Part shown: positions 48,057-63,848 of the stretch, one piece after another | Numbering within the stretch: position 1 is the first letter of the stretch | How the letters are laid out: each line of letters starts with the position of its first letter | Virus record (IMG/VR): IMGVR_UViG_3300019360_000001 | DNA from: a virus | DNA: 64,000 nt | Direction: 5' to 3' (one strand) | Position numbers and translations under genes: made by a program | Notes under the pieces: model-generated | What the model was told of the DNA's origin: nothing | The model's input: the letters and a program-made list of their open reading frames with translations, nothing else | Database searches by the model: none

Positions 48057-49556
48057 TTACATTTTTTTAGCATAATCTGACAGCAAAAATTCTTTTCCGT
48101 GCAATTTAACAATCATTCTTCCCAATCTTTCACTCCATCTTTCTACAGAGGGCTTAATAACAATTCCTTCTCTATTATGGCAACCATTACCGATTATTGT
48201 TGGGCCATCTGCTAGTTGTTCTACTTGTTCAAATGATATTAATGGGCCACGATAGATTATTGGAACCGAATTAAATTCTAATTTATCGAAAATAAACTTA
48301 GCATCATCATAGTTTAAGTATTTTCCCTTCGTAATATCAAAGATATCAAAAAATGCTACTTTACATAAATTTGGATGACCATAATGGTATTTGTTTCCTG
48401 CTTGAGTTTTACCATATAGCTCGCCAAAAAACAAGAGATTAGGATAATTTGCTAATTTTTCCCCAATATTATTTTCTCTAGCCCACTTAGACCATTCATT
48501 ATTGTCTTCGTTTTCCTTAGCTAGTCTATGAGAACCCACCCATAAATCATTATCCACGTATGAAAATCTAGCGTTGGAATTATGTACCAAAATATCTGGA
48601 CAAAAGAAATTATTAGTTTCGGTTTCTATATCATATTTACTAGATTTTATTTTATATGTAACATCTGTTATGGATATAATTTCTTGTTCTATTGTAATTC
48701 TTTTGTATTCTAACTGTATAGGCGTGAGCGATAAATCATTTCTTATGCCAGATACTTTATCATTAACATTTAAATCTTTTAATTCTTTATATGAATCAAT
48801 ACTAGGACAATAAAATTTATGATTTGGTGTTGCAACTACCTTGGAAAATGAATTTCCCTTCCCCAATCCTCTTCTTTTAGTTTTTATTTCAAGCCATTTA
48901 TTACATTTTCCATTATTAAATGTATTTAAAACCTTAGATGGAATGATGTTTCTATTATTATCTTGTCCTAAAACATATTCTCCTATTTTTATTTTATTAA
49001 TAGGTTTACTTGTTCCATCTGCCATCCTTATTCTTTGATTAGATTTTAAACATCCATGGATTTTTTCTGTAAAAATAACCTCTTCTCCAAGAGTGAATTC
49101 TTTAATATATTTTCTAGCACTTTCAATATCTGTGTACAATGAGAACCATGCTGGACTTTTTCTATTTTTGCCACTCATATTGCAAGGTTCTACCGGATCA
49201 GGAGACTTAACAGCTCCTAGAATTTCGGCAACATTAGTCCCAACTTCTTTATCTTCTAGGCCAAATAATTTGACTGGCATTATAATTCCCATAGAAAATA
49301 TCCCACGTAGCTTTTTGGCCTTGATAGTTCTTTGTCGTTCGCTTGGATTTTCTCTGTTTTGCCAAATAAATGCAAATTCTGGCTTAATTGGCAACATTGC
49401 ATCAACTGGGAAATATATTGCTTTGTCACCTTCTTGAAATTCACCTAGTTTGAATATTACAGGGAATTGATATACATGAGTAATTCCAAGAGTATCAGCT
49501 TCGGGATGTTTGCCCCATTTCCCTACTTTAATTATCTCAACTATTAATGTACTCAT
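48057..49556 (-). CDS. ATP-dependent RNA ligase (DRB0094/Rnl5-like) with intein
   Basis: N-terminal OB domain (HPEADTL...GDKAIYFPVDA...KLRGIFSMG), motif I TEKIHG/SN, FGELYG, FFDI and REGIVIK. Confidence 0.88.
   Translation of the reverse strand: MSTLIVEIIKVGKWGKHPEADTLGITHVYQFPVIFKLGEFQEGDKAIYFPVDAMLPIKPEFAFIWQNRENPSERQRTIKAKKLRGIFSMGIIMPVKLFGLEDKEVGTNVAEILGAVKSPDPVEPCNMSGKNRKSPAWFSLYTDIESARKYIKEFTLGEEVIFTEKIHGCLKSNQRIRMADGTSKPINKIKIGEYVLGQDNNRNIIPSKVLNTFNNGKCNKWLEIKTKRRGLGKGNSFSKVVATPNHKFYCPSIDSYKELKDLNVNDKVSGIRNDLSLTPIQLEYKRITIEQEIISITDVTYKIKSSKYDIETETNNFFCPDILVHNSNARFSYVDNDLWVGSHRLAKENEDNNEWSKWARENNIGEKLANYPNLLFFGELYGKTQAGNKYHYGHPNLCKVAFFDIFDITKGKYLNYDDAKFIFDKLEFNSVPIIYRGPLISFEQVEQLADGPTIIGNGCHNREGIVIKPSVERWSERLGRMIVKLHGKEFLLSDYAKKM
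48579..49052 (-). mobile_element. Mini-intein (158 aa) in RNA ligase motif I
   Basis: KIHG/CLKSNQRI...TPNHKF...KYDIETETNNFF..ILVHN/SNARF. Confidence 0.9.
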
Positions 49557-56483: not shown

Positions 56484-56560
56484 TGGTAGCTCCGGTCAGA
56501 TTTGAACTGACACTAACATCCTTTTAAGAGATGTGCCTCTGCCAATTGGGCTACGGAGCC
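56484..56560 (-). tRNA. tRNA-Leu(UAA) with encoded CCA and short variable loop
   Basis: Acceptor GGCTCCG/CGGAGCT, D loop AATTGGCAGA, anticodon arm CATCT-CTTAAAA-GGATG, T arm GTCAG-TTCAAAT-CTGAC, 3' ACCA. Confidence 0.9.
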
Positions 56561-61176: not shown

Positions 61177-61395
61177 TTAAACCCAATAAATAAATATGTT
61201 TTTGCGTTTTCTCCTAGCAGAATCACCATTCCAGAAGTTAATAAGTTCATAAATTTTCTTGGCATCGGCAAGATAAACCGTTTTCTTGCCTCTATGTTGA
61301 GTATTCCCATAATATTTCCAGTTATAAACTACTGGAACAAAGTGTTTTGGCCTAATAAGTTCATCTTCAAAGTAATATTCAAACGGTGCATACAT
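61177..61395 (-). CDS. Hypothetical protein
   Basis: ORF in early region. Confidence 0.45.
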   Translation of the reverse strand: MYAPFEYYFEDELIRPKHFVPVVYNWKYYGNTQHRGKKTVYLADAKKIYELINFWNGDSARRKRKNIFIYWV

Positions 61396-62074: not shown

Positions 62075-62091
62075 AACCATCGAAAAAATAA

Positions 62092-62109
62092 GGCCTAATA
62101 GCCTAGGCC
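62092..62109 (-). terminator. Intrinsic terminator
   Basis: GGCCTAG-GCTA-TTAGGCC followed by TTATTTTTT. Confidence 0.7.
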
Positions 62110-62275
62110 GTTTGTGTTGGGTTAAAAATGCGCCCGAAAATCTTTATGGATTTCCGGTTCTTGTTGGCACAAGCATGCGATTTGTTAGGGCTTGCCTTGC
62201 CCCTTTTTGTCCGCAACGTAGGCGCAAATCGTGAAAAGGGCTGAAGATACAAAAACTTATGGGTTAATATGTATT

Positions 62276-62339
62276 GGCCTCTTCAGTATCCGCTTCACGG
62301 ATAAACAAAGGGACGGTATACCGTCCCAGTGTTTCGGCC
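62276..62339 (-). ncRNA. Type II hammerhead ribozyme
   Basis: 5'-GGCC GAAA CA [hairpin GGGACGG-UAUA-CCGUCCC] UG U U UAUCCG UGAAG CGGAUA CUGAAGA GGCC-3'. Full core present, G10.1-C11.1 pair, GUU triplet, predicted cut between 62304 and 62303. Confidence 0.85.
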
Positions 62340-62361
62340 TGTCTTCTGTAATTTTATAGTC

Positions 62362-62661
62362 TTACGAAATTCGGGCCAACATCTCCTCAAGTTGCTTGAC
62401 CTTGGCGATTTGCTTCTCCAGTCGGGCCCGGAGCTGTTCGGGGTTTTCGGATGCCGTTCCTTCGCCTTCGTATTCTCCGCTGGCGTCCAATTCGGCCTTT
62501 CGAGTCTGCAGATATTCGAGCCGCTCTTGCCATTCGAGTAGCATGCGCTCGTTGCTGGCGATCCGGTCTTGCGCTTCCCGAATGTGCGCAATCAATGCAC
62601 TCCGGGAAAATCGCCGACCTCGCCTAGCGATGGTTTCGATTTTTTCCGTGACTACTGACAT
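62362..62661 (-). CDS. Coiled-coil early protein
   Basis: Start MSVVTEK at 62661 after SD AGAAAGGA; GC-richer codon usage than the rest of the window. Confidence 0.7.
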   Translation of the reverse strand: MSVVTEKIETIARRGRRFSRSALIAHIREAQDRIASNERMLLEWQERLEYLQTRKAELDASGEYEGEGTASENPEQLRARLEKQIAKVKQLEEMLARIS

Positions 62662-62667
62662 GTGGAT

Positions 62668-62693
62668 CCTTTCTGGGCTTTTCGCCCTAAGTT
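62668..62693 (-). repeat. 26-bp leader hairpin plus SD, copy 1
   Basis: AACTTAGGGCGAAAAGCCCAGAAAGG, identical to 63823-63848. Confidence 0.85.
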
Positions 62694-62750
62694 GTTTATT
62701 TTCCTTCAAAAAGGGTTAAGCATGTGCAATGCCAATACCAAAATTTTCGT

Positions 62751-63822: not shown

Positions 63823-63848
63823 CCTTTCTGGGCTTTTCGCCCTAAGTT
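63823..63848 (-). repeat. 26-bp leader hairpin plus SD, copy 2
   Basis: Identical to 62668-62693. Confidence 0.85.

Follow-up and report, generated by a model that had tools for sequence, protein, structure and literature searches.

On the minus strand of an uncultivated cave phage (IMGVR_UViG_3300019360_000001, about 31% GC) lies a complete type II hammerhead motif of 64 nt, at 62339–62276, and the RNA that is made just after it can, according to our folding calculations, pair with the catalytic core and hide it. Phage hammerheads are already known, and it is this second property that sets this one apart. We argue that the motif, found in a stretch of 64,000 nt that we call the window, is a genuine type II hammerhead that would cut its own transcript while that transcript is still being made and would later be masked, and that the cut would uncouple a small gene from the RNA that follows it. 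For this explanation as a whole, we would put the probability at about 0.75.

What might such a ribozyme be for? Thousands of hammerheads are known in phages and bacteria, and their function there is still an open question (PMC6765202). As one more entry in that catalogue, the copy in the window adds little; what makes it worth attention is a clean contrast that can be tested. There are two natural alleles, one with a GUU triplet and a terminator-like stem III and the other with GUC and no such terminator, and the strand that flanks the window ribozyme competes with it nonrandomly, whereas 15 of 18 relatives in its subgroup show no competition. The downstream product would be a conserved noncoding RNA, not the next gene. 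The locus could reveal whether phage hammerheads are gated by cotranscriptional folding.

The Motif and Its Parts

In the direction of the minus strand, the elements come in the order GGCC, GAA, A15.1, stem III hairpin, U17, stem I hairpin, CUGAAGA, and GGCC, and they occupy the following positions.

62276–62339, minus strand: whole type II hammerhead motif, 64 nt (sequence, fold, sole descriptor match, and 53.1 bits with our covariance model R1)
62336–62339, minus strand: 5' strand of stem II, GGCC, preceded at 62340 by an A common to all subgroup members examined
62305–62335, minus strand: GAA (G12–A14) and then the stem III hairpin (sequence and fold; re-paired in the relative)
62303–62304, minus strand: predicted scissile bond between U17 (62304) and U1.1 (62303), triplet GUU
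62287–62303, minus strand: stem I hairpin, 6 bp with the 5-nt loop UGAAG (sequence and fold; size and loop type match most of the subgroup)
62280–62286, minus strand: catalytic core strand CUGAAGA, C3–A9 with N7 = A (sequence)
62276–62279, minus strand: 3' strand of stem II, GGCC, which pairs with 62339–62336 (sequence)

The invariant hammerhead core can be read from the sequence in full (C3 U4 G5 A6 N7 G8 A9 and G12 A13 A14), with A 62332 and U 62305 as the A15.1–U16.1 pair and G 62279 and C 62336 as the G10.1–C11.1 pair; GAA with A15.1 takes up 62335–62332, and GAA itself takes up 62335–62333. The open helix is stem II, whereas loops close stems I and III, which is the type II topology. Stem III (62332–62305) consists of an ACA/UGU base (the pairs A15.1–U16.1, C–G, and A–U), a 2×2 internal loop (C·U/U·U), and a 7-bp GC-rich hairpin closed by a UAUA loop, and only the three basal pairs adjoin the core before the internal loop interrupts the helix. 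Both GUU in the window and GUC in its relative obey the NUH rule for cleavage triplets (H is not G). GUU is cleavable and is listed among the active sites, outside the triplets with the highest intrinsic rates (PMC3138052). Folded in isolation, the 64-mer has the three-way junction as its minimum free energy (MFE) structure at –29 kcal/mol, with a z score of –4.4 and none of 200 shuffled sequences as stable. No tertiary contact could be demonstrated for the window hammerhead.

A preliminary description of this DNA had proposed a complete type II hammerhead 3' of a small gene, and that proposal is borne out by a relative with compensatory change, by 14 unrelated phage hammerheads, and by the 53.1 bits of the covariance model. 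Its coordinates are correct to the base, and the same is true of the 22-nt gap between the stop codon of the ORF (62364–62362) and the ribozyme and of the position of UCUUCAG at 62247–62241.

Could a motif with so small a core be there by accident? Short core motifs do arise at random, and a search of a bacterial genome collection for the core with stem II returned 85 matches, 81 of them by chance and mostly in coding sequence; that number, together with the silence of Rfam on the site, is what a reader who takes the motif for a chance resemblance without ribozyme function could cite. However, not one of the 81 chance matches passed a filter that asked for stems I and III. Our own type II descriptor finds one site only on both strands of the 64-kb window; in 300 first-order Markov simulations of the window, loose matches numbered 18 (0.06 per window), and with stems of at least 6/4/3 bp there were 0 in 300. 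To this must be added the compensatory change in the relative and the E value of 6e-12 from a model built independently of the window. The resemblance is not due to chance, and a motif of this kind that lacks ribozyme function altogether seems to us very improbable.

A search for further hammerheads of any topology in the window or in the relative's contig found none. Elsewhere, a recurring sequence of ~59 nt in contigs of metagenome-assembled genomes from Bacilli and Bacteroidales (L052, L054, L056, L063, L082, and L098) matches the pattern of stem II and core and has the same A-GGCC-GAAAC start, but it fails the hammerhead stem filter; in L052, 507 nt separate two copies of it. The sequence could be either a coding motif that recurs or a variant ribozyme.

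A Subgroup of Phage Hammerheads

When viral contigs were scanned with the pattern of stem II and core alone, 23 loci were obtained. Among these, 14 distinct and otherwise unrelated sequences form complete hammerheads, and three sequence classes fail to fold, which is about the chance expectation. The 14, together with four hammerheads from bacterial assemblies, make up what we call the subgroup, defined by a GGCC stem II and a CUGAAGA core (loci L001, L007–L024, L030, L061, L065, and L084). In all 14, an A precedes stem II, stem II has 4 bp, and nucleotide 17 is C; in most, stem I has 6 bp and a 5-nt loop with U first and usually G or A last.

In an alignment of the 14, 96% of cells are paired, compared with near 40% in slid controls, and double-sided changes number 64 vs. 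19.8 in shuffled alignments, with 0 of 500 shuffles reaching 64; nonfolding sequences were removed before alignment, which brings in some bias, and the filter that removed them asked only for three to four pairs. Stems I and III covary across the subgroup; stem II is invariant and therefore gives no covariation evidence. A covariance model made from the 14 without the window or its relative (R1) scores the window at 53.1 bits (E 6e-12) and the relative at 64.4 bits, each being the sole match in its source, although the score is in part a product of the design, since the window supplied the seed pattern. No such dependence affects the agreement in flanking A, stem I size, and loop type.

Gene context is shared as well. 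Among the 14 members from viral contigs, 11 have the end of an ORF of at least 42 aa no more than ~13 nt upstream, and most of the 14 have a ribosome binding site and start codon 16–40 nt downstream. Processing of polycistronic phage RNA by hammerheads has been proposed (PMC3088659, PMC6765202), and the context of the subgroup fits that proposal.

Type II hammerheads occur in bacteria and phages (Perreault et al. 2011, PMC3088659; RF02276, clan CL00010), and those between phage genes have been on record since that year. Why then does Rfam not see this one? The check suggested in the preliminary description, an Infernal search with the type II model, came out negative: RF02276 gives no match on the window, either at the gathering threshold or at E ≤ 10, in scans that covered the whole window at gathering and segments of 301, 110, and 3001 bases at the E-value level. 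The by-matches, a misaligned RAGATH-1 at E 2 and miRNA and snoRNA noise, were set aside. The gathering cutoff of RF02276 is 37 bits, and the window falls below it, but so do controls from the subgroup, for the compact hammerhead L020 reaches only 24.5 bits and the clean hammerhead L001 gives no match at all. Because these controls show the model to be insensitive to this architecture, we do not count the silence against the ribozyme. The reason lies in the different outer parts of the subgroup, whose stem II has 4 bp, whose loop I has 5 nt, and which lacks the pseudoknot; in the window copy, a long stem III depresses the score further. By structural definition, the site is a hammerhead, though one outside the Rfam seed type. 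This architecture is common in phages, and because it scores below the Rfam type II cutoff, annotation pipelines will tend to under-report the subgroup.

A Relative from Caves

The phage is a rare one. DNA and protein scans of viral and metagenome collections led to one 25-kb contig from cave metagenomes (L002, L003, and L005), and it is the sole independent relative. A blastn search of the phage GenBank collection gave no match, and a pattern scan of metagenomes returned only the same relative and two chance matches inside GC-rich coding sequence. The locus was found solely in DNA contigs of cave metagenomes. Two cave-metagenome DNA runs contain the relative's allele and one fragment of the window type, with no third variant; the fragment, from a second cave sample (run X2), is listed with no differences from the window across the ribozyme.

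What the two phages share is a homologous module, made up of a leader hairpin, an ORF, the ribozyme, and a sequence that runs to a U-run at 62122, and homology ends on both sides of it. The parts of the module outside the ribozyme, with features on either side of it, are these.

62664–62740, minus strand: leader with a GGGC-GAAAA-GCCC hairpin, found also before ORF 63816, and ahead of it two overlapping sigma-54-like matches at 62740–62719
62362–62661, minus strand: 99-aa orphan ORF directly upstream of the ribozyme, stop codon at 62364–62362, under purifying selection
62247–62274, minus strand: spacer hairpin AUACA/UGUAU, its stem kept in the relative, where the loop is 10 nt shorter
62230–62247, minus strand: putative antiribozyme strand (pair list, MFE folds, and energy comparison)
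62122–62229, minus strand: conserved branched noncoding RNA domain ending in a U-run, identical in the relative but for one inserted base
62085–62109, minus strand: intrinsic terminator-like hairpin with a U-tract, the predicted end of the 3' product in the window

The relative's hammerhead (L002:2387–2451) has a core, stem I, and stem II identical to those of the window. Its stem III has been rebuilt with compensatory pairs, 15.3–16.3 being A–U in the window and G–C in the relative, while the distal helix differs in both sequence and length and the linker is also heavily diverged. U17 of the window is C in the relative (GUU vs. GUC), the relative has no U-tract, and the window U residues at 62304, 62307, and 62308 are all C there. 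Among the 20 distinct hammerheads examined, U17 occurs in the window alone; the relative and the 18 others have GUC. Pair counts from MAFFT and RNAalifold on three sequences were discarded, stem III having been misaligned.

The 99-aa ORF differs from its counterpart in the relative at 45 of 300 bases, with 26 synonymous vs. 8 nonsynonymous codon differences, and on this ground, we regard it as a real gene. It belongs to no Pfam or PHROG family that we could find, and its protein has one homologue among 5.8 billion proteins; an arginine-rich patch lies near the N terminus. The last 110 nt of the ORF are, like the sequence downstream, nearly identical between the two phages, and the downstream near-identity could reflect recent recombination instead of selection.

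The Transcript Around the Ribozyme

Every gene in the window is encoded on the minus strand. The leader and a sigma-54-like site are a candidate start of transcription on that strand. Two overlapping –24/–12 matches lie at 62740–62719 (minus strand), and the leader begins ~30 nt downstream of them; the window contains 5 matches to this pattern vs. 0.76 expected by chance, and the site at 62719–62740 is not kept in the relative. An identical 23-nt leader sequence at 62668–62690 and 63823–63845 (minus strand) runs into the Shine–Dalgarno sequence of two unrelated small ORFs, and it is kept in the relative.

On the other side of the ribozyme, the domain at 62122–62229 has no ORF, and its counterpart in the relative is at L002 ~2481–2600. 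We see in it a candidate for a small RNA or for a mobile leader module, and a scan for this conserved downstream RNA found only the relative. In the window, it is followed by two terminators. In the relative, it is followed by an extra gene of 86 aa (L003 11381–11641, minus strand) that is absent from the window, a 40%-identical paralogue of the 72-aa ORF at 61177–61395 (minus strand); the two products have a similar YWV tail.

Two other genes of the window deserve mention. One, at 48057–49556 (minus strand), encodes a 499-aa RNA ligase with an OB-fold domain at residues 7–95 and a Pfam RNA_ligase match at 325–485, and weak matches to Hint and intein splicing, which fall within residues 164–326, suggest a mini-intein inside the gene. 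An RNA ligase is of interest in this phage because the 5'-OH and cyclic phosphate ends that hammerheads leave are substrates of RNA repair enzymes. The other is a single tRNA-Leu (anticodon UAA) at 56484–56560 (minus strand) in an otherwise protein-coding stretch.

Pseudoknot or Mask?

The preliminary description had offered two roles for the UCUUCAG segment downstream, a pseudoknot with loop I or a sequestration of the core that could act as a switch. The calculations favor the second. In the masked fold, 62286–62280 (the core) pair with 62247–62241 (UCUUCAG), 62291–62290 pair with 62239–62238 (CC), and 62299–62293 (the 5' strand of stem I with loop I) pair with 62236–62230 (UUUCACG), the whole helix being capped by the spacer hairpin. 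In full context, this is the MFE structure in both phages. When growth of the transcript is simulated, no more than 0.1 kcal/mol separates the hammerhead fold from the MFE up to 62244, the masked fold is ahead by 1.6 kcal/mol at 62240, and from 62228 onward, it leads by 6.5–10 kcal/mol.

Is this any more than what a random tail would do? With 60 nt of native tail, forcing the window RNA into the hammerhead costs 8.9 kcal/mol, a penalty reached by 0 of 60 shuffled tails; in the relative, the penalty is 6.8 kcal/mol (2 of 60). The hairpin of the 3' product has –21 kcal/mol vs. –13.4 ± 2.3 for shuffled tails, of which 6 in 1000 are as stable. In 15 of the 18 other subgroup members, the penalty is 0.0, lower than with their own shuffled tails, and a search for a nearby 6-nt complement to the core found one in 0 of the 18. 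By these folding comparisons, the masking helix appears to be both nonrandom and specific to the lineage of the window and its relative. It draws no support from covariation, because there is only one lineage and the relative is identical across the masking region.

The pseudoknot fares less well. Published ones have at least 4 bp and join loop I to nucleotides immediately 3' of stem II (PMC3088659), whereas the 5-nt complement of loop I in the window comes 29 nt downstream of stem II, after a hairpin, with none directly after stem II. Such a complement is absent from the tails of 13 of 14 other members and present in 1 of 14, about the chance level, so that it is not a trait of the subgroup. 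A pairing of loop I with 62246–62242 was considered and not adopted, since a 5-nt loop has steric room for only ~4 bp and cannot pair fully, the partner does not lie beside stem II, and the subgroup lacks it. We hold the pseudoknot to be unlikely for these reasons, and the masking helix is, in the folding models, much better supported.

A Proposed Mechanism and Its Rivals

The analysis has shown the motif, its conservation, its place in the subgroup, and the competing helix; cleavage itself, its timing, and its biological purpose we infer from these observations, as follows. As soon as 62276 has been made, the nascent minus-strand RNA would fold into the three-way junction and cut itself between U17 (62304) and 62303; the most likely cut is in the transcript between the 99-aa gene and the ~180-nt conserved RNA. 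This would leave the message of the 99-aa gene with the GC-rich stem III hairpin at its end and a 2',3'-cyclic phosphate as its terminus, and the downstream RNA, ~180–215 nt long, would begin with a 5'-OH. Some 36–48 nt later, the strand 62247–62230 would emerge, pair with the unpaired core, and invade stem I by way of loop I. The long hairpin that results would be more stable than the ribozyme fold and would confine cutting to a short cotranscriptional window of time, and after a cut, it would lock the 3' product in a form unable to religate. All told, the small gene and the conserved RNA downstream of it would be uncoupled; in the relative, that RNA also leads into the extra 86-aa gene. Because the masked fold is thermodynamically favored in the full precursor, much of the RNA may never cut.

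The ribozyme is not the only thing that stem III could be. Its 7-bp GC-rich hairpin (62327–62310), with a tail of 7 U in 9, was picked up by a terminator scan as matching the intrinsic terminator pattern, and in the relative, the hairpin keeps its position without the U-tract. The main rival to our reading of the window copy supposes that this hairpin now serves mainly to terminate the transcript of the 99-aa gene and that the hammerhead is decaying or redundant. The supposition would make sense of several facts at once: the U residues at 62304, 62307, and 62308 that are C in the relative, the absence from the window of the 86-aa gene that the relative has after the module, and the U17 unique in the subgroup, which would be a sign that selection on the ribozyme has relaxed. 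Both U17 and the U-rich internal loop would then have been acquired because termination took over after the 86-aa gene was lost. Termination would also give nearly the same 3' end of the message as the ribozyme cut, and for this reason, cut and termination may be redundant in the window. But the core, stem I, and stem II are intact despite heavy divergence of the adjoining linker and stem III, and as read from the sequence, this intact core argues against full decay of the ribozyme. A contig from the second cave sample (run X2) matches the window type across the ribozyme, GUU is a permitted cut site (PMC3138052), and the two functions are compatible in any case, since transcripts that read through would still carry a complete ribozyme. 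We judge it unlikely that termination is the main business of this hairpin.

Nor must the long hairpin (62299–62230) be a mere brake. Perhaps it is itself the functional structure, a 5' stem of the downstream RNA or a site for a double-strand-specific nuclease, so that the hammerhead would be rarely populated in vivo and there would be no self-cut unless a trans factor opened the hairpin, which would make the ribozyme a regulated one. That the masked fold is the full-context MFE in both phages and is better than the forced hammerhead fold by a nonrandom 6.8–8.9 kcal/mol speaks for this possibility, and the core and loop I, single stranded in the ribozyme fold, could be toeholds for fast invasion. 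Thermodynamic folding, however, ignores both the tertiary contacts of hammerheads and the order of transcription, and the ribozyme is complete 36 nt before the competing strand exists. A long hairpin alone would, moreover, fail to explain why the GAA strand with A15.1, stem II, and a stem III with new pairs have all been kept in the relative. We think it quite improbable that the ribozyme rests in this way.

Going beyond the mechanism that we prefer, cotranscriptional cutting with later masking, we offer a more specific and more speculative version. The hammerhead might be a device that matures the 5' end of a conserved phage small RNA (~62303 to 62124 or 62090), and the self-masking strand 62247–62230 might, by capturing the core and stem I after a brief cotranscriptional interval, set the ratio of cut to uncut RNA, with the remnant of the ribozyme turned into a protective 5' hairpin. 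This is a possibility to keep in mind and not one that we would wager on; if true, it would give a DNA phage a natural kinetic switch built on a ribozyme, one that only this lineage of the subgroup possesses.

Comparison with Known Systems

Like the type II consensus (PMC3088659, RF02276), the window motif has an identical core, an open stem II, and capped stems I and III, and it likewise lies between phage genes, beside small ones, a setting for which polycistronic processing has been proposed. In the consensus, stem II counts 2 bp and loop I ~10 nt, and the tail forms a pseudoknot right behind stem II; in the window, the corresponding figures are 4 bp and 5 nt, and no complement comes immediately after. 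To its own subgroup, the likeness is much closer (an A before a 4-bp stem II, a 6-bp stem I, a 5-nt loop with U first, a variable stem III, and a ribozyme that begins at or near the stop codon of the gene upstream), and the differences stand out the more clearly: C17 in 18 of 18 members vs. U17 in the window; a hammerhead that is the MFE structure with native downstream sequence in 15 of 18 but not in the window or its relative; and viral-contig members that mostly precede the ribosome binding site of the next gene by 16–40 nt, whereas the window motif precedes a conserved noncoding RNA of ~180 nt.

Alternative inactive conformers have precedents in the hammerheads of viroids (ASBVd and PLMVd) and in engineered allosteric hammerheads. 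In those systems, a competing fold sequesters strands of the ribozyme and limits cutting to a kinetic window or a trigger, and the window is predicted to be alike. They are, however, replicating circular RNAs or synthetic constructs, whereas here the competitor is the 3' flanking strand in the transcript of a DNA phage. Synthetic insulators of the RiboJ type also place a hammerhead before a hairpin, RiboJ itself having been engineered from a type III satellite-RNA ribozyme. As predicted for the window, RiboJ cuts and leaves the downstream RNA with a hairpin at its 5' end, an arrangement by which upstream and downstream expression are kept apart; the RiboJ hairpin leaves the ribozyme core unconsumed, whereas the hairpin in the window would be made from the core itself. 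Inactive hammerhead conformers are also taken up in the discussion of the 2011 report on type II hammerheads (PMC3088659).
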